Source of the DNA: an uncultured Tateyamaria sp.
GTDB lineage: Bacteria; Pseudomonadota; Alphaproteobacteria; Rhodobacterales; Rhodobacteraceae
DNA length: 64,000 nt
NCBI RefSeq assembly: GCF_947494755.1
Contig: NZ_CANLVZ010000008.1
Span: forward strand, 50,739 to 114,738
Direction of reading: 5' to 3'
Position numbers and translations under genes: made by a program. How positions within the stretch are numbered: position 1 is the first letter of the stretch; every line of letters starts with the position of its first letter. The notes under the pieces are model-generated. The model was given only the letters and a program-made list of their open reading frames with translations, had not been told where the DNA came from and did no database searches. Below, piece after piece: positions 6,565 to 51,256 of the stretch.

Positions 6565-8369
6565 GTGCGCCCGAACAGCCGTTCAATGTCGGCCAGCTTG
6601 AGTTCGACATATGTGGGGCGGCCATGATTGCATTGGCCGGAATGGGGTGTCGCCTCCATCTCGCGCAGAAGGGCGTTCATTTCCTCGGCCCGCATCCACC
6701 GCCCAGACCGGATGGAGCCGTGACAAGCAACCCGGCTCAGGACGGCTTCGATCCGGGCTTGTACCGACTGGCTCGATCCCAGATCGCTCAACTCGTCCAG
6801 AATGTCGCGCAACATCGCAGCGGCATCGACCTCGCCCAGAATTGCGGGGGTTTCGCGCACGGCAATGGCGTCACCGCCAAAGAGTTCGATGCCAAGGCCC
6901 AGCTTGTGCAGATCCTCGACAATCTCCATCAGCTGCGCGCATTCGGGCGCGGACAGGCTCACGATTTCGGGGATCAGCAGGGCCTGCGCCGGCACCCCGT
7001 TTTCGGCCATCTGCCGTTTGAGTTTTTCATAGACCAGCCGCTCGTGGGCGGCATGTTGATCCACGATGACCATCCCGGTCGCAGTCTGCGCCACGATGTA
7101 ATTTTCATGCACCTGCCCGCGCGCCACGCCAAGGGGCAGATCCGTCGGGTCAACCGCATCTGCCACATCGCACGTGTCGACAACCTGTGCACTGAAATCC
7201 TGCGCCATGTCGGCAAAGCCGGGCGCAGGGCCGCGCGGGCCAAGGCCGGGGCGGTCCATCTGATACACACGTGGCTGGGTCGGCTCCGGCTGCATCGCAT
7301 CCAAGGTTGCGCCCGCCACCGTCGAAGAGGCGCGGTGCCCGGCATCCGCCAGCGCATGACGCAGGCCCGACACGATCAGACCGCGCGCAAGACCCGGATC
7401 ACGAAACCGCACCTCGGACTTTGCCGGATGCACGTTGACGTCCACCAGCTGCGGATCGCAATCCACAAACAGGGCTGCCGCCGGATGGCGATCTCGGCTC
7501 AGAAAGTCGAAATAGGCAGCACGCAAAGCGCCAATCAGCACCCGATCCTTGACCGGGCGGCCGTTCACAAACAGAAATTGCGCGACAGCCGCACCACGGG
7601 AATAGGTCGGCAAGGCTGCATATCCAGTCAGGTGCAACCCTTCGCGCATAGTATCGATGGCGATGCTGTTGTCTGCAAATTCGCGGCCCAAGACGTCAGC
7701 CAGGCGCCCGCGCAGTGCTGCCATTGGATCTCCGGTTCGCGCCTCGACGCTGAAGATCGTGCGCGGCACGTCAGACACATCACGCAGCTCAAACCGGATG
7801 AAAGGTTCGGCCATGGCCAGCCGTTTGATCACATCCGAAATGGCCTGGGTTTCCGCGCGATCCGTGCGCAGGAATTTGAGCCGCGCAGGCGTTGCATAAA
7901 ACAAATCACGCAATGTGATCGTGGTGCCGCCATTCAGCGCCGCAGGCTTGACCGCGCCGAGCTGTCCACCGGTCACGACGATCTCGGCCGCTGTATCGCC
8001 CGGGACACGGCTGGTGATCGTGAGCCGGCCAACCGCGCCAAGGCTGGGCAACGCTTCGCCCCGAAACCCGAACGTATGGATGTTCAGCAGATCGCTGCCG
8101 TCGATTTTGGACGTGGCATGGCGGCTGAGCGCGAGCGGCAGGTCAGCGGCTGCGATGCCACACCCATCATCCGTGACCCGGATCAGCGTCTTGCCCCCAC
8201 CCGCGATGTCGATGCCGATCCGCCGCGCGCCCGCATCAATGGCATTTTCGACAAGCTCTTTGACGGCGGAGGCCGGACGTTCGACAACCTCACCCGCCGC
8301 GATGCGGTTGACGGCGGCATCGTCCAATTGGCGGATCACAGGTCTTATGTTGGGGGTCGGGTCGTTCAT
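6561..8369 (-). CDS. mutL: DNA mismatch repair protein MutL
   Basis: GHKL ATPase N-terminus ([25 protein letters not shown]) and C-terminal endonuclease motif [12 protein letters not shown]. Confidence 0.95.
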
Positions 8370-40948: not shown

Positions 40949-41596
40949 TCACTTGGATTGCCACGTCCCCAACCAGCGACGGAACCGACCGCGCCGGTCC
41001 TGAACCGCGTCTCCTGCGGCCTCCCAACTGTCCTGCAATTCCTCGATCTTTGGGTCGATCCGTGCGCGACGGAACCGACGCCAGCGCACCCAAATCCCAT
41101 AGAACAGGGCGGCCAGCAGGGTCAGCACAATGATGTTCACCCATGGGATACCCTTGGACGCATCAGGCCCTTCGACCTCACGGATCGAAATCGCATTGGG
41201 AAACACCGTCAGGAATTCGTTGCGCCACCCGTAATGGGTGATGACGTACCATTCCGGGGCCGCGCGGGTCGAAATCGCATCGTTGGCCTCCGTATAGAGG
41301 TTGGCCGTGTCGAATTTGAAATAGGGCGGCCAGCTCCAGCCCGTGTCTTCGTTGCGATAGACGATGGGTTTGCCGTTGGCCCGAACCGCTTGCAGGAACT
41401 GGACGTCTCGGTTGACCAGCGTGTCGGATTGTTCATCCGGGCGCGACCAGAACATGCGGGTCCAGTCGCTCAGGTCTTGGCGTTCCTCATAGGTGTTCAC
41501 AAAGCGCACGATGTCGCGTTGCGGCAGCGTGTAGTGCAGGAACGCCCCCAACCCGACCCAGAAAATGATCAGCAAAGTCCAACCGATATAGCGCAT
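40949..41596 (-). CDS. DUF1523-like membrane protein (last gene of the nine-gene operon)
   Basis: ATG at 41596 (the track start at 41608 is TTG). N-terminal and C-terminal TM helices flank an about 150-aa domain. The family name is from memory. Confidence 0.55.
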   Translation of the reverse strand: MRYIGWTLLIIFWVGLGAFLHYTLPQRDIVRFVNTYEERQDLSDWTRMFWSRPDEQSDTLVNRDVQFLQAVRANGKPIVYRNEDTGWSWPPYFKFDTANLYTEANDAISTRAAPEWYVITHYGWRNEFLTVFPNAISIREVEGPDASKGIPWVNIIVLTLLAALFYGIWVRWRRFRRARIDPKIEELQDSWEAAGDAVQDRRGRFRRWLGTWQSK

Positions 41597-41608
41597 CAAG
41601 GTCCCCAA

Positions 41609-41872
41609 TCAGGCAAAGTTCACGAGATAGATGGTAAGGCACACCAGCGCCATAGGCACGATATAAACCCCCCAGATCAGTTTACGACGCAGCGACCCGT
41701 CGTAGTCCTGCAGACCTTCGCGCACGAAAGCATCGCGCGGCATGGTCTTGTCGCTTTCGTCCCATTCGCCCTCCAACCGGGCGCGTGCCCGCGCTCGCGA
41801 ATACAGCGACAGGCTGAGGTAAACGATGCTGAGCACCACAAAGGCGATAAAAAACAATCGGATCAAAGCCAT
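41609..41872 (-). CDS. Small 2-TM membrane protein (87 aa)
   Basis: Strong RBS GAGGAGG inside the end of the upstream gene, 3-nt gap. Two hydrophobic helices separated by a charged loop. Confidence 0.5.
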   Translation of the reverse strand: MALIRLFFIAFVVLSIVYLSLSLYSRARARARLEGEWDESDKTMPRDAFVREGLQDYDGSLRRKLIWGVYIVPMALVCLTIYLVNFA

Positions 41873-41875
41873 ATC

Positions 41876-43210
41876 TTACCTCCTCACAGCGCCCCACGGC
41901 CCGACACGTTCGATCAGATCCCGGGGTTTTGGTTGCGGTTCCGTCAAGGGCGCGTCGTGGCCGAACAGGGCTTCGCGCGCACCCGCTTTGTCGGCCTTGT
42001 ACTCGGCTTCGAGATAGCGCGCGACATATTCCTTCTGCCGCTCGGGCCACGTGGCATAGGCCGCGTAAAATGCCTGTTTGTGACAGATGAACAGCTGGCG
42101 CACATCAAGGGGCGACAGTTCCGACAGCAACATATTCACCAGCGCATGATCCGGCGTATCGGCCGCCCGCAATGTGTAGAAATAGGCCGGGTGGTCCGAC
42201 GAAATGCGCGGCCATGACCCGCCGTTCTCCGCCCAGTTCACCAGTGCGGCCAACCCATGAAACGCCTCCGGCAACAGATCCGAGTGCCGCCGCGCCAACA
42301 TCCGCATATCGCGCCGCGTGGTGCCTGCCAGATCAACGCCCGCTGCCGTCACGGCTGCAACAAGGATGAAGTCCATCTTCTGACGCAGGATCGCGGCCCC
42401 GTCGATGCCGCGCGCCTTGACCACAGGTTCGACCAGGTCATTGAACTCGAGGAACTTGGCGATCCGGTTCCGCTCGGTCAGATCGAACGTGTATTTGGTG
42501 GGCAAATCGTCAGGCTTATCCCCGACTGCAATGGTGGCCGGGTGATCAACCGACTGGAACACATAAAGCCCACCGAAATGCGCCGTCCAGAAATTGCCCT
42601 GCTCGACCTTCAGCGGTTTCAACTGCACAGGATTGCGCGTCACATCCCCGGTTTGGCCTGCAAGCGTGATCATCTCGCCGATCAGAACATCGTCAAACCA
42701 CGCATCCTCTTGGGTCAGAAACGTGTCGACCTTGGCCGCAAGGTCAGCCGCATTGCGCACCGTGCCCATGGTCGTATCCGCCTCGACCGTGATGGCGCGA
42801 ATGTCGAACAGCCGCTTGGGGTCCTTCAGATCATAGATCGAATTAATCAACTCCCCGGCCACTGCATCGCGGGCCGTAAGCGCAAACAAGGCCGCCTCGT
42901 TTTCCGCAATAAACCGTTGCAGGATCGGCAGCGAGGTCGAGAATTTGGCATCCAGCAACGGGCAATTGCGCTGCTCCGTGCTTAGTAGGATGAACTGTCG
43001 ATTGACCCCATTGTGGTTGAGGTAGAGCGGGTCGTTGAGGTCATTGCCCACCTCGGGCGAGAAGCCAGAGATGTCGATGTAGAAATCAGTGAGTGTCGTG
43101 GTTTGCCCAGTCAGATGCTTGAGCGCACGGTTATAGCGGTCGACCAGCGCGGGCGAGGCGACATGGAAGAGGTTGCCGTACATGAGACCAGATTGGATGA
43201 GGCGGATCAT
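41876..43210 (-). CDS. Hypothetical 444-aa soluble protein, no family recognised
   Basis: Long ORF with codon usage like its neighbours. ATGA overlap with the upstream small gene. Confidence 0.6.
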   Translation of the reverse strand: MIRLIQSGLMYGNLFHVASPALVDRYNRALKHLTGQTTTLTDFYIDISGFSPEVGNDLNDPLYLNHNGVNRQFILLSTEQRNCPLLDAKFSTSLPILQRFIAENEAALFALTARDAVAGELINSIYDLKDPKRLFDIRAITVEADTTMGTVRNAADLAAKVDTFLTQEDAWFDDVLIGEMITLAGQTGDVTRNPVQLKPLKVEQGNFWTAHFGGLYVFQSVDHPATIAVGDKPDDLPTKYTFDLTERNRIAKFLEFNDLVEPVVKARGIDGAAILRQKMDFILVAAVTAAGVDLAGTTRRDMRMLARRHSDLLPEAFHGLAALVNWAENGGSWPRISSDHPAYFYTLRAADTPDHALVNMLLSELSPLDVRQLFICHKQAFYAAYATWPERQKEYVARYLEAEYKADKAGAREALFGHDAPLTEPQPKPRDLIERVGPWGAVRR

Positions 43211-43503
43211 GATGCGGCCCTGCCCAACCTAAAAATCAGTGCCGCGGCCAGTGCAATCGCCGGAACCGCGAAGGCCCGATAGCTGATCTGTAAATTGAAC
43301 CCGATATACGCCACCCACGACCCGTTAAAGAGCAAGAGAGAGTCCTCAATCGACTCCCCGGCAAAGCCTGTCGCGGCATTGATCGTGACCTGCACCACGA
43401 ACAAAACCAACGCGCCGCTCAGAAAGCCAAGGACGCCCCAGTGCAACGGCAATACACAACCCAACACCAGCGCCAAAGCAGATATCCATAGCACCAGCAT
43501 CAT
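43207..43503 (-). CDS. Small 3-TM membrane protein (98 aa)
   Basis: Start trimmed to MMLVLWISALALVLG (the longer track ORF overlaps the ATPase gene). ATGA overlap with the downstream gene. Confidence 0.45.
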   Translation of the reverse strand: MMLVLWISALALVLGCVLPLHWGVLGFLSGALVLFVVQVTINAATGFAGESIEDSLLLFNGSWVAYIGFNLQISYRAFAVPAIALAAALIFRLGRAAS

Positions 43504-43537
43504 GGTAAATACCGCTCGTTGACATGCGGCTCGGCGC

Positions 43538-45472
43538 TCACGTCTTACTCTCCAACCACCGTTTCTTCGCCGCTTCCTGCCGCCCGAAGTCGCGCACCAT
43601 TGCCTCCACGGCCACCTCATCCGACTTGTCCGCATAGCGGAATTCGCTGTCGGCGTAGCGGTTGATTTCCTGCACCACCATGTCGACCGTGATGGGCACG
43701 CGCAGCTCTGAAATCATCGACTTCTTGGTGTCGTAGTCGTGGAACAGGAACAACTCGGGGTCCTCCATCCACTCATCGGGCAGCTCAAAATCCATCGCCC
43801 GGACCTTGACCGCATCGGTGATATTCTTGATCGCACGGCCCGTGAACCGGTCATCCGCTTCCTGAATCGCCTTTAGGTAAGTGCCCAGTTTCGCAATCGT
43901 ATCCAGCGCGCCCACCTGCGCATCGACCCGGTCAAACACCTCCATCAACCCCGGTTCGTGCGGGCGGGAATGAGACTCGAAACTGGCGGCGACGGCTTTC
44001 TTGATTTCTTGCGCTGAAAACACCTCATGCGCGCCAAGCGGGATGTCGTGGTTCTTGCCCATCAACAGATAGAGGATGTCGATGTAGTCCTCGCGCGTCT
44101 GCGGCCCATCCACCAGAAACCGCGCCCCGGCCCGCTGGCGCAGCGCATCGTCAACATTCTCAGGGTAGTTCGAGAACATGCCAAAGGTGCAGTTGCCGCG
44201 CACGACGGTGTTGGCCCCGGCAAAGCTTTCCATCAGTACGGCGGTGATTTCGAGTTGCCCGGCGCTGGATTGCCGGTCGCCCCGCTTGCCCGCCAATTGG
44301 TCGATATCGTCGATGGTGCCAAAGCCGATCACGGACGGATCAAGCACATTGTTGATGAACGCCTTGGCGTTCTGACCCGACTTGCCCTGATAGCTGTCGA
44401 TGTTGTCGGTAGAGAGGTTCTGATAGCGAAACGGATAGCCTGCGACCTGACAATAATCATTCAGCAGCCCTGCCATCATCTGGATCAGCGTCGTCTTGCC
44501 CGTGCCCGGTTTGCCATCGCCCATGAAGGTAAAGATAAACCCGCCCAGTTCTGCAAACGGGTTTAGACGGCGATCAAAGTCGTAAGCCATCAACATCTTG
44601 GCCAGTTTCATGGCCTGATATTTGGCGATGTGGTTGCCCACGACCTCATGCGGCTTCTTGAAGGTCATGGTCAGGGTGGAGGACTTCGCCTTGGACGCCG
44701 GCGAGAACCCCTGAACCGTGAAATCATCCGCCTCGACATGCCAGCTTGCATTCAGGAATGCCTCAAGCCGAGGGGCGTTCTGCGCGCGCAAGGCAACCTT
44801 TTCCATCAACGCCTCGGCATAGGCAGCCACACAGGCCACCAGATGCACGTCGTCCGGCGCATAGGTCTGAATGTTGCGGTCAAGTTCCCACAAGGCCCCA
44901 TGCAGGGCGGTTTGGCCATTGTCGGTCAACACCTCTTCGACCTCGCCCACCTCTACGACTGTTTCCGACTGATGCGCAGACAGAAGGTACGCGGTCGCAT
45001 TGGCAAAAACGTAAAGGGTGATCAACGCCTCTGCCGCCAGTAGTTCGGCAAACTCAGCCTTGCGCGCGGCGGGCAAAGCCCCCTCAAGATTGGCGCGCTT
45101 GAGGTCCCCCAACCCAGACACGGCCGCGTAATTCTCGGCCACAGCCAGCGCGATCGACACCGCCCGGCGCAGCGCATTCAAAACCGTCGCCTGCATCGGT
45201 GAGACCAGCGCATCGTCATCATCCGCCCCTTCGATTGTGGCCATCAACTGCACTGCACCTGTGGGCACGGACCGGCGGGTCACAAGGCCCGGGGTGGTCG
45301 TGCGAAATCGACGGCGGGTTCCGATGCCGGACGACCGCTCGGGCGCTGCTGCAACCTCGGCCTTGCCGATCCGCGGCGCGTGGTCAAACCCCTGCAACAG
45401 CGCCAGAGCCACCGGGTAATGCGCGACAATCTCGGCCTCACGCAACTCCATCTGATCCGACGTCTGGCTCAT
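43538..45472 (-). CDS. AAA+ ATPase, classical AAA clade, with about 330-aa unknown N-terminal domain
   Basis: ATG at 45472 preceded by GAGGGA. Walker A GKPGTGKTT, Walker B IGFGTIDDID, second-region-of-homology-like SNYPENVDDALRQRAGARF. Confidence 0.8.
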   Translation of the reverse strand: MSQTSDQMELREAEIVAHYPVALALLQGFDHAPRIGKAEVAAAPERSSGIGTRRRFRTTTPGLVTRRSVPTGAVQLMATIEGADDDDALVSPMQATVLNALRRAVSIALAVAENYAAVSGLGDLKRANLEGALPAARKAEFAELLAAEALITLYVFANATAYLLSAHQSETVVEVGEVEEVLTDNGQTALHGALWELDRNIQTYAPDDVHLVACVAAYAEALMEKVALRAQNAPRLEAFLNASWHVEADDFTVQGFSPASKAKSSTLTMTFKKPHEVVGNHIAKYQAMKLAKMLMAYDFDRRLNPFAELGGFIFTFMGDGKPGTGKTTLIQMMAGLLNDYCQVAGYPFRYQNLSTDNIDSYQGKSGQNAKAFINNVLDPSVIGFGTIDDIDQLAGKRGDRQSSAGQLEITAVLMESFAGANTVVRGNCTFGMFSNYPENVDDALRQRAGARFLVDGPQTREDYIDILYLLMGKNHDIPLGAHEVFSAQEIKKAVAASFESHSRPHEPGLMEVFDRVDAQVGALDTIAKLGTYLKAIQEADDRFTGRAIKNITDAVKVRAMDFELPDEWMEDPELFLFHDYDTKKSMISELRVPITVDMVVQEINRYADSEFRYADKSDEVAVEAMVRDFGRQEAAKKRWLESKT

Positions 45473-45541
45473 CTCTGTCCCTCTTTCATTGTTCTTCAAA
45501 TACTCCCGCCGGAGGCTCTACAGCCCGGCGCGCGCATCCGT

Positions 45542-46660
45542 TCAATACCGCAACACTCGGCCCGTCGGGCTGACCACAAACTTGCGCACCGACGCAAATC
45601 CCGGTGGCCCCATTTCCTCAAGCGCCTGATAGACCCGGGCGGGCAACACGATGCTGCGCTCCATCCGGGTGGCGCCGGTTTCCGCGCCCCGCCCCGCAAA
45701 CGGATCCAGCGCGAACACCTGCCGCTCAACAGACGAAAACCAGCCCGACCGTTCGGTCATCACCCGTTCGGAGCGTAAATCCTCTTCGGTCCAGACCAGC
45801 GACCAATCCTGCCCTTCCGGCGCGCGCGCCGCCTCAAGCACTTGCGAAATCGGCCCCGACTGCTTGGTGAAGGCCGAGGAATACATCGGCCCCACATGAA
45901 ACCGGCGCAGCCGCTTGGGGTGCAGGTCGTCAAAATCCTCGTCAAAGCCTTTGGCAATTGTCACCAGTTTCAACCCGCCGAGTGCCTGCGCCATCAAATG
46001 CGCCTGCGCTTCGGGCCAGCGGCGCTGATCCTTGGGCAAGGCGGTGCGCCCGGTGTCCTCGACATCCATCATGTAGATCACGGGCAGGTTGACCTGACTG
46101 TCATAGACCGCCCAGTGCAGGCGGAACGTGCGCCTTTCTTCGGTGAGATTGCCCGTCCAGACCGCCTGTGGATCATTGCGCGGCCAGAACAACTGCCCAC
46201 GCAGCAACTCTTCGTAATAGAGCCGCTGCGACATCGCGAATTGCAGCTTGGTTGGCACCACCCGTTCGCCGACAATCACTTCGACCATCTGTTTTTTCAG
46301 CTCGTGCGCCGAGGGCATGCCCGCCAGATGGCGCTCGGCCTGTTGGGTGTCGCTGGCCATCGTGATGATCTCGTCCGCGGCCGGAAAGCCGCTCTCGTGC
46401 GCGTCAATGGAAAGCGAGCCAAAGAACCGGCCTGTATCCCGCCCCACCAGCAGGTATTTCAGGGATAGGGCGCGAAAAGTGAACGTCAGTTCGGTGATAT
46501 AGCGGGTCAGGATCTTGACCTCGGCCCGGTCCAGATTGCCGTCGGCCTCCATGACTCCGGCGACACGACCCAGATGCGAGATGATCGTCTCGAACTTGCG
46601 GAAATAGCGGCGCGAGGCGAAGAGATCCGTGAGGCCTATGGTCTCGGATTGTGTCAACAT
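45542..46660 (-). CDS. Hypothetical 372-aa soluble protein, no family recognised
   Basis: Long ORF in operon context. The start overlaps the upstream small ORF by 7 nt. Confidence 0.6.
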   Translation of the reverse strand: MLTQSETIGLTDLFASRRYFRKFETIISHLGRVAGVMEADGNLDRAEVKILTRYITELTFTFRALSLKYLLVGRDTGRFFGSLSIDAHESGFPAADEIITMASDTQQAERHLAGMPSAHELKKQMVEVIVGERVVPTKLQFAMSQRLYYEELLRGQLFWPRNDPQAVWTGNLTEERRTFRLHWAVYDSQVNLPVIYMMDVEDTGRTALPKDQRRWPEAQAHLMAQALGGLKLVTIAKGFDEDFDDLHPKRLRRFHVGPMYSSAFTKQSGPISQVLEAARAPEGQDWSLVWTEEDLRSERVMTERSGWFSSVERQVFALDPFAGRGAETGATRMERSIVLPARVYQALEEMGPPGFASVRKFVVSPTGRVLRY

Positions 46661-46914
46661 CCCCCACCACTATCACCGCCGGTCGATCCACCGCCACCAG
46701 CCCAAAACTGTTGGCCACTTCGGTCAGCTTCAACATTTGATGCGCCGAGCCAAACCAAGGCAAACAACGTCAACGCAATGCCCGGCAGATAGCCCCACCA
46801 TGGCGCCTCGAAAAAATGGGTGCCGAAGAGTGCGAGCAGTGCACCGGCCAGAAACAGCACCCGCCGCAACATTTGACGTCCAGGACTAGCTTGTTTGGAT
46901 CGTGACAGCGTCAT
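46654..46914 (-). CDS. Small 2-TM membrane protein with Gly-rich tail (86 aa)
   Basis: The start abuts the stop of the preceding 48-aa ORF, and GGAGG/AAGGG lie upstream. Two hydrophobic helices, then ...WAGGGGSTGGDSGGGC. Confidence 0.4.
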   Translation of the reverse strand: MTLSRSKQASPGRQMLRRVLFLAGALLALFGTHFFEAPWWGYLPGIALTLFALVWLGASNVEADRSGQQFWAGGGGSTGGDSGGGC

Positions 46915-47061
46915 TCAGCCCTTGCGCCTCCGGCTGAGCAGAAACAACCCCGCAATCCCGGCCACCAGCCCCACGCCGTTCACCCACAAGGGCGCGCCGA
47001 AGGCCATCGACCCCACAAGGCATAACACTGAAACCGCGACACAGATCAGGCCGAGTTTCAT
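46915..47061 (-). CDS. Small 2-TM membrane protein (48 aa), not in the supplied ORF track
   Basis: My translation is MKLGLICVAVSVLCLVGSMAFGAPLWVNGVGLVAGIAGLFLLSRRRKG. GGAGG lies 7 nt upstream of the ATG. 3-nt gap from the upstream stop. Confidence 0.4.
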   Translation of the reverse strand: MKLGLICVAVSVLCLVGSMAFGAPLWVNGVGLVAGIAGLFLLSRRRKG

Positions 47062-47064
47062 GGC

Positions 47065-48141
47065 CTAACCTCCATACGCATTGCTGTCGTGTTTCTCGAC
47101 AATCTGCGCGAACCGGCGGGCAAAGCGTTCGTCGGCCTTGGCCTTTTGCTCCAGGACATCACGGGCGAACACCATGTGATCCTCGTGCGCCTCAAGCATG
47201 TCGGCCATCCGTTTGTTGGTCGCCGCACCAATCCCGGCCATAGCCGTTTGCGCCTCCTGATCCGTCTGCACGCCGATCTCGTTGATGCGGTGAGCGACGT
47301 CCTGCTGCTGCGCGGTTTTCAACGATTTGGTGAGGGCGTCATAGAGCACCACGCGTTGCTTCGTGTCCGTCTGCAACTTGTTGATCAGCACCATCTGGGT
47401 CGCCGCCTGATTCTGTAACGAGTCGATCCAGGTTTTGCCCTTTTCGATGTAGCGTTCCAGCGTTTGGGACTTGGCGAGCTTAACCTGTTCGTCCTGCACC
47501 ATCTGGTTATAAGCGCTGTTCATCTCTGCCAGCTCAGTCTCGAGTGCTGTGCGTTTGGCCGCATCGGTTTCGGAAGCGATCTGGTTTTCCAGCGTGATGA
47601 TCTTGGGGTCCATTCCTTGTATTTCACCTTGCAGGGCCGCAAGTTCCTGCACCGTCATTTCACGCTCATCCAGTGTTTCAGTCAGGTTGCCCTCAACCTT
47701 GACCTTCTGCTCTTCGAGCATGGTCAACTGGCCTTGCAGCAGCTGCACGATCACGTCGGATTTCGAAATCAGGTCCTGCAACTTGTCGTCAATCGAGGCA
47801 GTGCGCACGCGCTCTTGGCGCATGCTGTCGGACTTGGCCTTGGAGAATATCCCAATGAAGGACTCCATCCCCGTCTTGTTGCGCATTTCGTCAAAGTCTT
47901 TGGAAAAGGCCGCAGTGACGTCATCAAGGCCCATGATCAGCTCGGCGATATTGGCGTTCATCACGTCCGTATGGGCGTGCACGTCATCCAAGGTCGCATT
48001 TTCGATGTCGATGGCGATATCGTCGCCCGATTTCATCTTGGACCGCGCCACCTCGATCCGGCTGGTCAGTTCGGCAATCTTGGTTTGCGCCTCGGCCACC
48101 TGCGCTTGGGACTCGCGCACCTGACTGTCAAAATCGGCCAT
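47065..48141 (-). CDS. 358-aa all-helical coiled-coil protein (first gene of the operon); TelA-like architecture possible
   Basis: Only the part from MADFDSQVRESQ (ATG at 48141, RBS GAGGGGAG) is coding-like. The upstream part of the 524-aa track ORF is antisense to tetR. Heptad-rich, Glu/Gln/Leu-rich. Confidence 0.65.
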   Translation of the reverse strand: MADFDSQVRESQAQVAEAQTKIAELTSRIEVARSKMKSGDDIAIDIENATLDDVHAHTDVMNANIAELIMGLDDVTAAFSKDFDEMRNKTGMESFIGIFSKAKSDSMRQERVRTASIDDKLQDLISKSDVIVQLLQGQLTMLEEQKVKVEGNLTETLDEREMTVQELAALQGEIQGMDPKIITLENQIASETDAAKRTALETELAEMNSAYNQMVQDEQVKLAKSQTLERYIEKGKTWIDSLQNQAATQMVLINKLQTDTKQRVVLYDALTKSLKTAQQQDVAHRINEIGVQTDQEAQTAMAGIGAATNKRMADMLEAHEDHMVFARDVLEQKAKADERFARRFAQIVEKHDSNAYGG

Positions 48142-48301
48142 AAAATTCTCCCCTCGTATCAATGTGTTGAGAAACATATAGGCAATGTAACACGCATTTA
48201 CATCATCTACTGTCCCGAATTCCTCCAAACTGTTGCAAAACCATCCCGAGAAATAAAGCGCCAAGCCGGGGTTTTCGTCTCTCGCCTGCGGCTGTATGGC
48301 T

Positions 48302-48314
48302 TGAACGCGGTTCA
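48302..48314. promoter_or_regulatory. Operator-like dyad TGAAC-GCG-GTTCA upstream of tetR
   Basis: Perfect 5+5 inverted repeat 14 nt upstream of the tetR ATG, inside the divergent intergenic region. Confidence 0.6.
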
Positions 48315-48327
48315 CACAGGGGCAAAC

Positions 48328-48933
48328 ATGGGATCCAAGGTCGAAGAACGTCGCAGCGCCTTGCGCGATACGTTGATCAACGTTGCCGAAGCTCAGATCG
48401 AGGCAGACGGGCTGGCCGCGATCAAAGCGCGAGGCCTGGCCGAAGCGGCGGGGTGTTCGGTGGGGGCCATCTACAACGTCTTTGACGACCTCGAAGATAT
48501 CATAATCGCGGTGAACGGCCGCACATTCGGCAAGCTGGGCCAACATGTGGCAACCGCCTTGCAAGGCAAAGAGGAGTTGCCCGCGACGGACCGGTTGATC
48601 GAAATGTCTTATGCGTATCTGGATTATGCGGTGACCCATCCACGGCTATGGCGGGCCCTGTTTGATCTGCGCATGTCGACGGATATGGACGTGCCGGATT
48701 GGTACCTGGCCGAGTTGGGGCAGTTGTTCGACTACATCGATGGCCCCGTCCGCGAATGCTTTGCGACATTGGACGACAGCGAGGTGCGATTGATGACACG
48801 GGCGCTGTTTTCATCAATCCACGGGATCGTCATGCTTGGCCTTGAAAACCGGATCAGCGGCGTGCCGCGCGACCAGATCCACCGCATGATCGCAATGATG
48901 CTGCGTTCTGCAACTGGAAACACAGTGTTTTGA
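48328..48933 (+). CDS. TetR/AcrR family transcriptional regulator
   Basis: 201 aa from MGSKVEERRSALRD. HTH ARGLAEAAGCSVGAIYNVF. Confidence 0.85.
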   Translation: MGSKVEERRSALRDTLINVAEAQIEADGLAAIKARGLAEAAGCSVGAIYNVFDDLEDIIIAVNGRTFGKLGQHVATALQGKEELPATDRLIEMSYAYLDYAVTHPRLWRALFDLRMSTDMDVPDWYLAELGQLFDYIDGPVRECFATLDDSEVRLMTRALFSSIHGIVMLGLENRISGVPRDQIHRMIAMMLRSATGNTVF

Positions 48934-48943
48934 ACATTGTTCA
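48931..48943. promoter_or_regulatory. Operator-like dyad TGAAC-ATT-GTTCA
   Basis: Perfect dyad. Extends to TTGAACATTGTTCAA. Overlaps the tetR TGA stop. Confidence 0.6.
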
Positions 48944-48953
48944 ACTTTTTTCT

Positions 48954-48966
48954 TGAACGGCGTTCA
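48954..48966. promoter_or_regulatory. Operator-like dyad TGAAC-GGC-GTTCA
   Basis: Perfect dyad. Extends to CTTGAACGGCGTTCAAG. Confidence 0.6.
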
Positions 48967-48987
48967 AGTTTGTCCTATCTCATTTCG

Positions 48988-49000
48988 TGAACGATGTTCA
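48988..49000. promoter_or_regulatory. Operator-like dyad TGAAC-GAT-GTTCA
   Basis: Perfect dyad ending 15 nt upstream of the pspA ATG, next to the RBS. Confidence 0.6.
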
Positions 49001-49015
49001 TGAAAGGGAAACGCC

Positions 49016-49687
49016 ATGTTATCTACGTTCCGAACACTCTTTGCCGGGGCAAATGCCCGCGCCGAAGACCGTGTGCGCGATGTCTATGCCATCGAGCTTA
49101 TCGACCAGAAAATCCGTGAGACCGAAGGGCAGGTTCACGCCGCCAAAGCCACGCTTGCCAGCCTGATCCAACGGCGCAGATCAGAGCAAAAGCTGCTGGA
49201 TATGTTGCGCACCCGGATCGCGACGTTGACCGAGCGGGCACAAGCTGCCATCGCGGCCGGACGCGAGGAGCTTGCCCACGAGGCCGCCAGCGCCGTTGCG
49301 GAAATGGAAAACGAGAGCCTTGTCCGGCAGGGCACGATTGACAGGCTGGACACTCAAACCACCCGTTTGCGCAGTTCCGTTGAGCGTGGCCATCGCAAGG
49401 TCATCGACCTTAAGCAAGGGGCATTGCAGGCCCGCGCCATGCGCCGCGAACAATCCATGCAATCGCAACTGCACACCACGGTCCAAGGGCAGTCCGCAGC
49501 AGATGAAGCGCAGGAGTTGATTGACCGCGTCGTGGGCAAGGATGACCCGCTCGAGCAGTCCCAAATCCTTGCGGACATCAACGCAGGTCTGGATCACACC
49601 GGGCTTGAGGATCGCATGGCGGAGGCCGGCTTTGGCCCCTCGACCAAGGTGACAGCGCGCGACGTACTGGACCGTTTGACCAAGTAA
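49016..49687 (+). CDS. pspA: PspA/IM30 family protein
   Basis: 223-aa helical protein. The N-terminal amphipathic MLSTFRTLFAGANARAEDRV and the overall layout parallel PspA. Confidence 0.8.
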   Translation: MLSTFRTLFAGANARAEDRVRDVYAIELIDQKIRETEGQVHAAKATLASLIQRRRSEQKLLDMLRTRIATLTERAQAAIAAGREELAHEAASAVAEMENESLVRQGTIDRLDTQTTRLRSSVERGHRKVIDLKQGALQARAMRREQSMQSQLHTTVQGQSAADEAQELIDRVVGKDDPLEQSQILADINAGLDHTGLEDRMAEAGFGPSTKVTARDVLDRLTK

Positions 49688-49721
49688 CACGACTTCAAAA
49701 CCATCAAAGAGGAATACACCA

Positions 49722-50009
49722 ATGCACAACGATAAATCCGACAACACCACGATCATGATGTTCAATCTGGCAGGCGTTGTTGCCGCCTATGCGCTGCTTG
49801 CCCTGTCCTTGTACCTGTCCACCGACGTGCCGCTTTCGACCAAGGGGTTTTGGGGCATCGGCATCCTGATGCTGACGCTGAGTCTTGTGAACTTTGTCAA
49901 ATACCGCTTCGACAATCAGCAACGCATCGACCGGATCAACCGGATCGAAGAGGCCCGAAACGAAAAGCTGCTTGAAGACTACGTGGGCGAGGTCAAAGAC
50001 ATCGCCTGA
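49722..50009 (+). CDS. YiaA/YiaB-type two-helix inner membrane protein
   Basis: 95 aa, RBS AGAGGAA. The LSTKGFWGIGILMLTLSLVNFVKYRFD pattern resembles the YiaAB repeat. Confidence 0.6.
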   Translation: MHNDKSDNTTIMMFNLAGVVAAYALLALSLYLSTDVPLSTKGFWGIGILMLTLSLVNFVKYRFDNQQRIDRINRIEEARNEKLLEDYVGEVKDIA

Positions 50010-50017
50010 TGCAAAAC

Positions 50018-50050
50018 GGGCCGCCCTGTCATGGGGCGGCCCATCTTTTA
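50018..50050. terminator. Hairpin between the convergent yiaAB-like and creatinase-like genes
   Basis: GGGCCGCCC-tgtcatg-GGGCGGCCC followed by ATCTTTTA. Confidence 0.7.
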
Positions 50051-51256
50051 TGCCACGACGTTGTGGTCCGGCCCGTAAGGGAACCCGGTGATATTCTCGG
50101 CTCCGTCCTCGGTGATGACCAGAATGTCGTGTTCGCGGTATCCACCCGCACCCGGTTGCCCTTCGGGGATTGTCAGCATCGGCTCCATCGAAATGACCAT
50201 GCCCGGCTCCAGCACGGTATCCACGTCCTCACGCAGTTCCAGCCCGGCCTCGCGCCCATAGAAATGCGACAATACCCCGAACGAGTGCCCATATCCGAAG
50301 GTGCGGTATTGCAGCAGATCGCGGCCTTCGAAAAACGCATTCACGCCCGCCGTCACCTCAGCGCAGGTCGCGCCGGGTTTCAGCAGCGACATGCCCAATT
50401 CATGCGCGCCGACATTGGCCTCCCACAGTTTCAGGCTGGCGTCGTCCACCGTTTCGACAAACAGCGTGCGTTCAAGTGCGGTGTAGTAAGCCGAGATCAT
50501 CGGGAAGGTGTTGAGCGACAGGATATCGCCCCGCTCGAGCGCCCGCGCCGTGACCGGGTTGTGCGCCCCATCCGTGTTCAGCCCCGACTGGAACCACACC
50601 CATGTGTCGCGATATTCCGCATCGGGAAAGCGTGCCGCAATCTCAAGCTCCATCGCATCACGCCCCGCCATGGCCACATCAATCTCACGGGTGCCGACCT
50701 TGATGGCGTCACGGATGGCATAACCACCCACATCTGCCACCTGCGCGCCTTGCCGGATCAACGCGATCTCGGCCTCGGATTTGTGCATCCGCTGGTTCAT
50801 TGTCGTCTCAAAAAGGTCGACGGAGGCGACAGGTTTCAGGAAATCCTCCATCTTGGCCTGCTGCATGAGGGTCAGATGGTCGGATTCGACGCCGATCACG
50901 GCCCCTTCACCCGTCACCTCACGCACCGCGCGCCAGAAGTTGTCGCGCTGCCAATCGGTGTAGGTGATGTTATCGCCATAACAGCGCCGCCAGGGCTGGC
51001 CCGCATCAATGCCTGCACTGATGGTCACGCCTGCGTCTTCGGTTACGACCAAGCCATAGGGGCGACCAAAGGCACAATAGAGAAAGCCCGAATAGTAAGC
51101 GATGTTGTGCATCGAGGTGAACACGGCGGCAGTGGCCCCTGACGCCTCCATCCGGTCGCGCAGCTCGGACAGGCGGGCCTCGTATTCGGCATTCTCAAAA
51201 GGCAAAACGCCTTGGGGGCCATTATGAAAGCGGTAAAAATCGGGGCGAGCGGTCAT
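50048..51256 (-). CDS. Creatinase-like M24 family hydrolase
   Basis: 402 aa. FTSMHNIAYYSGFLYCAFGRPYGLVVTED, GQPWRR and YTDWQRDNFW closely parallel creatinase as I remember it. Confidence 0.75.
   Translation of the reverse strand: MTARPDFYRFHNGPQGVLPFENAEYEARLSELRDRMEASGATAAVFTSMHNIAYYSGFLYCAFGRPYGLVVTEDAGVTISAGIDAGQPWRRCYGDNITYTDWQRDNFWRAVREVTGEGAVIGVESDHLTLMQQAKMEDFLKPVASVDLFETTMNQRMHKSEAEIALIRQGAQVADVGGYAIRDAIKVGTREIDVAMAGRDAMELEIAARFPDAEYRDTWVWFQSGLNTDGAHNPVTARALERGDILSLNTFPMISAYYTALERTLFVETVDDASLKLWEANVGAHELGMSLLKPGATCAEVTAGVNAFFEGRDLLQYRTFGYGHSFGVLSHFYGREAGLELREDVDTVLEPGMVISMEPMLTIPEGQPGAGGYREHDILVITEDGAENITGFPYGPDHNVVA

Follow-up and report, generated by a model that had tools for sequence, protein, structure and literature searches.

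Four identical palindromes as probable operators of a TetR-family repressor at a pspA-yiaAB locus of Rhodobacteraceae

A stretch of 64,000 nucleotides (nt) from an uncultured Tateyamaria sp. of the Rhodobacteraceae (NCBI RefSeq assembly GCF_947494755.1, contig NZ_CANLVZ010000008.1, positions 50,739 to 114,738 of the forward strand), hereafter called the window, carries on its forward strand the gene of a TetR-family regulator, followed by the gene of a PspA/IM30 family protein and that of a small YiaA/YiaB-like membrane protein, with four copies of one perfect inverted repeat placed before and between tetR and pspA. The regulator gene, tetR (48328..48933), encodes a 201-amino acid protein which combines an N-terminal helix-turn-helix domain (PF00440, residues 16-62; 24.2 bits against a cut-off of 24, E 3e-5) with a C-terminal PF13305 domain (TetR_C_33, 'WHG'; 44.1 bits against a cut-off of 26.8) and for which there is no NCBIfam equivalog. 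The pspA gene (49016..49687) encodes 223 amino acids that match PF04012 over residues 7-220 (52 bits against a cut-off of 33.9), and its orthologues carry the NCBI name 'PspA/IM30 family protein'; the protein reaches 15.6 bits in TIGR02977, the equivalog of enterobacterial PspA with a cut-off of 243, and also lies far under the NCBIfam equivalog cut-off for LiaH. Co-operonic with pspA is a gene (49722..50009) for a 95-amino acid protein with two predicted transmembrane helices and a charged C-terminal helix, which matches PF05360 (17.5 bits against a cut-off of 26.6) and NF008482 weakly, and whose orthologues in cultured strains, at 38-42% identity, bear the NCBI name 'YiaA/YiaB family inner membrane protein'. 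The gene calls made in a first-pass annotation of the window are thus borne out by Pfam, for the yiaAB-like gene by a weak match below the cut-off.

The inverted repeat, TGAACNNNGTTCA (TGAAC-N3-GTTCA), was found by exact search at four positions of the window only. The tetR-proximal dyad, referred to as OR (TGAACGCGGTTCA, 48302..48314), covers the predicted start site of tetR and ends 13 nt before its ATG. Three further dyads precede pspA: O1 (TGAACATTGTTCA, 48931..48943), the distal one, shares its first three bases with the tetR stop codon TGA (48931-48933) and is followed by an AT-rich spacer of 10 nt; O2 (TGAACGGCGTTCA, 48954..48966) contributes its left arm to the predicted -35 box of pspA; and O3 (TGAACGATGTTCA, 48988..49000) begins 6 nt past the predicted -10 box, where transcription is predicted to start, and leaves 15 nt between its end and the pspA ATG, the ribosome-binding site following directly. 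In dinucleotide-preserving shuffles of the window a mean of 0.04 perfect dyads is expected, and none of 100 shuffles reaches four, so that both the positions of the four dyads and their non-random nature, as claimed in the first-pass annotation, stand. Dyads that deviate by one or two mismatches are no more numerous than chance predicts (21 against 22.7), which places the signal entirely in the four perfect copies.

The closest relatives of the TetR protein are found in Tateyamaria and other Rhodobacteraceae, and 80 rhodobacteracean loci were retrieved by the TetR protein alone, using a profile of 17 of these close relatives. These loci contain 265 perfect dyads in 620,787 bp, where 0.35 are expected from composition, and all 265 fall into the same four slots, none further away than 80 nt upstream or 130 nt downstream of tetR. 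The concern that the motif might be common in unrelated contexts is answered by this distribution, in which every copy sits at tetR or pspA, together with the lack of additional copies in the window. OR is perfect in 79 of the 80 loci, and a dyad is always situated 8-28 nt from the tetR start, in Rhodobacteraceae mostly at 11-18 nt. In about 65 of the 80 loci pspA is found downstream of tetR, in nearly all of these followed by yiaAB, and 62 of them were analysable for the operators in front of pspA. Here O3 is perfect without exception (62/62) and in 54 loci 13-17 nt away from the pspA ATG; O1 is perfect in 58, and O2 in 55 with one mismatch in five more. The motif is thus conserved upstream of orthologous pspA genes, and it also recurs there in distant Hyphomicrobiales, whose TetR proteins are only 30-45% identical to that of the window. 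Not only the sequence but also the spacing is maintained, with 21-23 bp between the centres of O1 and O2 and 33-36 bp between those of O2 and O3. The central triplet is R-N-Y in 97-100% of the O1, O2 and O3 sites, so that the real motif is close to TGAACR-N-YGTTCA, and the centre of OR is less constrained; for genome-scale scans the motif takes the form TGAACRNYGTTCA.

In 14 of the 80 loci tetR occurs without pspA, and these have retained OR and no other dyad. In two of them (L019 and L025) tetR is directly followed by the convergent creatinase gene that borders the locus also in the window, which indicates that pspA-yiaAB and the three operators come or go as a block. A consistent alternative target next to the pspA-less tetR genes was considered and rejected, as their neighbours (NDUFS4-like, UvrB, enolase-family, SIR2-like, DUF1989 and acyltransferase genes) are unrelated to each other. 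Seven pspA-less loci of a Boseongicola type (L030, L037, L041, L045, L056, L070 and L071) show a conserved sigma54-type box, TTGGCAAGCCTGTTGCA (GG-N10-GC), upstream of OR, some 40-55 nt ahead of the tetR ATG (around L030:3945-3962); in this lineage tetR itself may be sigma54-dependent.

The dyads coincide with predicted promoter elements. For pspA, a promoter is predicted at 48953..48981 on the forward strand, with the -35 box TTGAAC (48953-48958) within O2, a 17-nt spacer and the -10 box TATCTC (48976-48981). The aligned intergenic regions display a common order of O1, about 10 nt of AT-rich sequence, O2 nearly always directly after CT, 7-8 nt, CTATCTC or CTATATC, 6-7 nt, O3, a GGAG-type ribosome-binding site and the ATG. 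The base before O2 is T in 100% and the base before that C in 89% of the loci; CTTGAAC with the -35 box is present inside O2 in 51 of the 62 loci, and a TA...[T/C] hexamer, mostly TATCTC or TATATC, follows at a spacing of 16-18 nt in 51 of 62. For tetR, the predicted promoter (48272..48300, forward strand) consists of a weak -35 box TTTTCG (48272-48277), a 17-nt spacer and the -10 box TATGGC (48295-48300), and across the 80 orthologous loci a GCTAnA/TAT-type -10 box sits 1-6 nt before OR, with a TTTYC/CTTG -35 box about 17 nt further up. We infer that TTGAAC and TATCTC constitute an alphaproteobacterial sigma70-type promoter of pspA whose start site falls on the first bases of O3, and that OR covers the start site of tetR. 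OR at the tetR start, O2 on the -35 box and O3 on the predicted +1 of pspA would be classical positions for repression by promoter occlusion.

The arrangement is not confined to Rhodobacteraceae. Metagenomes were scanned with the motif alone, as two dyads 8-11 nt apart and with no protein information, and in 78 of the 120 contigs returned a TetR homologue, a PspA homologue or both are encoded within 400 nt of the tandem dyads. Most of these are of high GC content, several of them from soil metagenomes, and carry a tetR gene (product 25-45% identical) divergent from pspA (about 30%) and yiaAB, with the same three dyads in between; the dyads keep their spacing, O2 again holds the -35 box CTTGAAC, and O3 lies at the usual distance from the ATG. 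Named organisms were obtained by a protein search of a plasmid collection, in which seven of eight loci fetched, namely those of Rhizobium tropici CIAT 899, Rhizobium sp. 11515TR, Ensifer sp. PDNC004, Ensifer adhaerens, Shinella, Aureimonas and Thioclava, have a divergent tetR, three perfect dyads and pspA-yiaAB, several also with aas (see below). In the divergent architecture O1 is located 9-35 nt from the tetR ATG and thus plays the part of OR there; a convincing placement of the tetR promoter was not obtained for this architecture. The tandem layout of the Rhodobacteraceae, in which the tetR promoter has a fourth dyad of its own, seems to have arisen by rearrangement with O1 retained, and this retention argues for a role of O1 at the pspA promoter. 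About 81 clusters (50% identity) match the window TetR protein at E<=1e-30. The module appears, from sequence comparison, to be old in Alphaproteobacteria and conserved across Rhodobacterales and Hyphomicrobiales, the layout of the window being one arrangement of it.

Downstream of yiaAB, members of the wider family usually carry a gene of about 1200 codons, the product of which is a fusion of a major facilitator superfamily (MFS) lysophospholipid transporter, an acyltransferase and an acyl-acyl carrier protein (ACP) synthetase, annotated by NCBI as acyl-[ACP]--phospholipid O-acyltransferase (LplT/Aas); an Aas homologue is not encoded in the window. The commonest complete layout, a tetR divergent from pspA, yiaAB and aas with the operators between tetR and pspA, is present in 18 contigs and would fit many of the truncated ones. 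In at least seven loci tetR and the operators lie divergent from aas and pspA is missing; two of these retain a remnant of the pspA N-terminus (MFKALF...) between the operators, just after O3, and lplT/aas (L156:~860-960 and L120, reverse strand). Judged by these remnants, pspA-yiaAB has decayed in both, with aas left under the same promoter. LplT/Aas serves the re-acylation of lysophospholipids that arise from membrane damage, and its association with PspA under a common repressor points to a regulon for membrane repair.

Several loci depart from these layouts. On the plasmid pRlX5 of Rhizobium leguminosarum TP16 (L206, 2848-2916) a more distant TetR paralogue (27-35% identity) is accompanied by two dyads 56 bp apart, and its divergent neighbour is lplT/aas, with no pspA. 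A pspA-yiaAB pair in contig L157, whose products share 58% and 69% identity with those of the window, is preceded by two dyads only (7092-7126), immediately next to the ribosome-binding site, and the 4.8 kb upstream contain no tetR; such a pair would be regulated in trans, as an unlinked version of the module. Tandem dyads with neither TetR nor PspA nearby occur at L109:2943-3008, L115:3327-3363, L196:1890-1925, L111:639-673 and L182:2605-2639, with genes for a VIT/VWA protein, an MFS transporter, CreD, a PlsC-type acyltransferase and a GNAT protein downstream, which are possible unlinked members of the regulon or targets of paralogous TetR proteins. Four low-GC contigs (L161, L169, L186 and L191; GC 0.32-0.36) contain the dyad many times inside tandem arrays with a period of 22, 44 or 66 bp; these are unrelated repeats that happen to contain the dyad.

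The regulator itself has a structurally characterized orthologue, PDB entry 3CJD from Jannaschia sp. CCS1 (E 1e-63, 53% identity, TM-score 0.84-0.93), a structural genomics target deposited without function, operator or target. The AlphaFold model of the window TetR protein (predicted local distance difference test score 90.8) has nine helices, of which helices 34-41 and 45-51 belong to the DNA-binding part, and its best structural matches are all TetR-family proteins, beyond the closest ones generic members. The recognition-helix residues G42, C43, V45, G46, A47, I48, Y49, N50 and V51 are invariant or at least 90% conserved, in both groups, among sequences that are 35-40% identical overall. 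A near-invariant recognition helix matches an unchanged operator, which supports the adjacent TetR as the reader of the dyad.

Taken together, it is highly likely that the four dyads are operators of the adjacent TetR protein, which would repress both tetR and pspA-yiaAB. A TetR dimer at OR, on the predicted tetR start site, would limit the synthesis of the repressor, while dimers at O1, O2 and O3 would occupy the pspA promoter, at O2 with the -35 box, at O3 over the predicted +1 and at O1 a position two turns of the helix further upstream. The contribution of O1 is probably cooperativity, and this site may in addition stop transcription that runs on from tetR. As long as there is no signal, pspA-yiaAB would be off; a signal acting on the C-terminal TetR_C_33 domain would release the repressor, upon which PspA, a membrane-stabilising protein of the IM30/ESCRT-III type, and its small membrane partner would be made. 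The autoregulated tetR and the repression of pspA-yiaAB by stacked operators which the first-pass annotation had suggested find support in the conservation of the sites and in the predicted promoter geometry.

As to the nature of the signal, our preferred guess, which we consider open to considerable doubt, is that the inducer derives from the breakdown of membrane lipids, for instance a lysophospholipid, free fatty acid or acyl thioester, and that TetR would be a direct cytoplasmic sensor of membrane-lipid damage. It is suggested by the linkage of the operon to lplT/aas, including the loci in which tetR and the operators accompany aas without pspA, and by the nearest characterized DNA-binding domains, which belong to sensors of acyl-CoA or other lipids: after 3CJD and 3ON2, the best sequence-profile matches of the TetR protein are FadR, FasR, KstR and PsrA.

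Several observations weigh against these readings. A generic Escherichia coli-type sigma70 scan called none of the promoters in the tetR-pspA region, a miss which is expected for alphaproteobacterial promoters, yet not reassuring, the boxes being consensus readings, and the predicted -35 box of tetR is poor. About one third of the metagenome contigs retrieved by the motif have no TetR or PspA nearby, and in the 14 rhodobacteracean genomes with tetR and without pspA the regulon may be wider or different. With regard to lipid sensing, the similarity to FadR, FasR, KstR and PsrA is weak and confined to the N-terminal DNA-binding half, and the nearest full-length structures, 3CJD and 3ON2, carry no assigned ligand.

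Among the alternatives, the one that survives best, although unlikely, leaves the repression as described but assigns the sensing to a partner protein: TetR would be kept competent for DNA binding by PspA or the YiaAB-like protein, and set free once that partner is drawn to the damaged membrane. In the PspF system, which offers an analogy, PspA as a rule feeds back on its regulator, and a 2024 survey of phage shock protein (PSP) gene contexts treats ClgR as a repressor-type regulator of PspA homologues; moreover, yiaAB is almost always co-operonic with pspA. However, tetR and its operator persist where the locus is devoid of pspA-yiaAB, with aas alone presumably under their control in the loci described above, and the ligand-domain fold of the TetR protein is, according to the model, a conventional one. 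The lplT/aas context and the persistence of tetR without pspA favour a small-molecule signal over such a partner switch.

Far less probable is that the dyads are bound by another regulator encoded elsewhere and that the adjacent TetR controls something else. Tandem dyads without a nearby tetR, as in L157 and L109, would be compatible with this, but the dyad travels with tetR in every arrangement, be it tandem or divergent, with pspA, with aas only or with neither, and always keeps one copy at its short distance from the tetR start; in addition, the recognition helix is as invariant as the motif, and an identical box is predicted for the TetR-type regulator BioQ. It is equally improbable that TetR binds the dyads but activates pspA, or acts both ways. 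A few TetR-family proteins are activators and O1 lies upstream of the -35 box, the usual place of an activator, but O2 on the -35 box and O3 on the predicted start would both exclude RNA polymerase, and OR is situated at the tetR start. Hardly credible is a function of the palindromes as RNA hairpins, as a terminator or attenuator between tetR and pspA or as a structured pspA leader: the transcript of 48920-49020 is predicted to fold at -30.2 kcal/mol (z -3.4) and O2 is flagged as terminator-like, but any repeated palindromes fold well, the arms are invariant without compensatory changes and the loops vary, as is the pattern of protein-DNA sites, O1 and O2 are upstream of the predicted pspA start and outside that transcript in the divergent architecture, OR lies at a promoter, and a known RNA family was rejected as no Rfam match reaches its gathering score. 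The alphaproteobacterial LexA box is a direct repeat, GTTC-N7-GTTC, the geometry of which does not fit an inverted repeat spaced by N3, and was rejected as well.

Downstream, an intrinsic terminator hairpin (50018..50042, forward strand; 11 bp with 9 G-C pairs and a T-run) closes the pspA-yiaAB unit and is followed by the convergent creatinase/M24 peptidase gene (50048-51256, reverse strand). A weak match to Thr_leader at 50010-50130 on the reverse strand (27 bits, the gathering score being 55; E 0.027) overlaps this hairpin and is most likely a chance match to hairpin and T-run. Upstream, an operon on the reverse strand (40949-48141), divergent from tetR, encodes a 358-amino acid coiled-coil protein, two small membrane proteins, a 372-amino acid protein, a 653-amino acid AAA ATPase (PF00004 only), a 142-amino acid protein, a DUF6638 and a DUF1523 protein; Pfam at a permissive threshold and PADLOC gave no usable assignment for it. 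Its first ATG (48141) is 160 nt away from the dyad at 48302, and co-regulation of this operon, which had been left open in the first-pass annotation, is unsupported and was rejected: the coiled-coil gene adjoins tetR only in Tateyamaria-like genomes, while the distance between OR and tetR is kept everywhere.

What PspA systems sense is a long-standing question; in the known cases, those of PspF with PspBC, of LiaRS and of ClgR, the signal reaches the regulator by an indirect path. A one-component repressor of the TetR family that has a pocket for a ligand and is connected to pspA in hundreds of alphaproteobacterial genomes would offer a simple route to the molecular signal. Were lipid sensing true, Alphaproteobacteria would share a ligand-gated membrane-repair regulon, tetR-[O1 O2 O3]-pspA-yiaAB-(lplT/aas), and a Psp response would for once have a small molecule of defined nature as its inducer. 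LplT/Aas as a frequent operon partner ties PspA to phospholipid repair, the uncharacterised YiaA/YiaB family obtains a context, and function, operator and target, the three attributes missing from the orphan structure 3CJD, can be proposed. The compact promoter, with its three operators within 70 bp and presumably tight repression, might also find use in Rhodobacterales and Rhizobiales as a genetic switch.

Repressors of the TetR family that bind palindromic operators and regulate their own genes are common, and classical as well as lipid-sensing members are released from DNA by a ligand; the boxes of KstR and FadR share a GAAC/GTTC core. With TetR/tetO, QacR, FadR, FasR, KstR and PsrA the window TetR has in common the helix-turn-helix and ligand-domain fold, palindromes that overlap promoters, here predicted ones, and probable autoregulation, but it differs from them in its TetR_C_33 domain, in three phased operators at one promoter and in a membrane-stress and repair target instead of catabolic or efflux genes. 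The closest precedent for the operator is actinobacterial BioQ of Corynebacterium and Mycobacterium, a TetR-type repressor of biotin genes, for which the box TGAAC-N3-GTTCA has been predicted and the repressor role shown genetically. Like the window TetR, BioQ belongs to the TetR family, is associated with the identical 13-bp box and has sites before its own gene and its targets, which makes it autoregulated; that the box was predicted for it indicates that the TetR family can read this dyad. In contrast, BioQ is actinobacterial, its targets are bio genes and transporters and no promoter with a triple operator is known for it, and a BioQ-type regulon does not describe the present system, as no bio genes were found at any of the loci, the targets being pspA-yiaAB and aas.

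The enterobacterial Psp system (PspF/sigma54/PspABC) resembles the locus in joining a PspA/IM30 protein with a small inner-membrane partner and in the regulator gene being adjacent, in the wider family also divergent. However, PspF is an enhancer-binding activator at a sigma54 promoter, while a repressor would act here at a predicted sigma70-type promoter; no GG-N10-GC sigma54 box can be read between tetR and pspA, no Sigma54_activat domain is encoded by the neighbouring genes of the locus, and the gene downstream of the window pspA is not pspB or pspC but yiaAB-like. LiaRS-LiaH of Firmicutes and ClgR-PspA of Actinobacteria likewise represent lineage-specific regulators wired to a PspA homologue, LiaRS as a two-component system and ClgR as an Xre-type protein, with regulator families, operators and partner genes that differ from those of the window. 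The 2024 survey, the most complete of its kind, mentions neither TetR nor YiaA in its text and supplement, which together with the lack of sigma54 elements at the locus upholds the proposal of the first-pass annotation that the circuit is different from sigma54/PspF and LiaRS. A description of TetR control of pspA was not found in the literature searched, which included Rhodobacter, roseobacters, rhizobia, the motif string and LplT; as far as that literature goes, what is new here is that a repressor of an ordinary family appears to govern a target both unusual and important, the gene of PspA.

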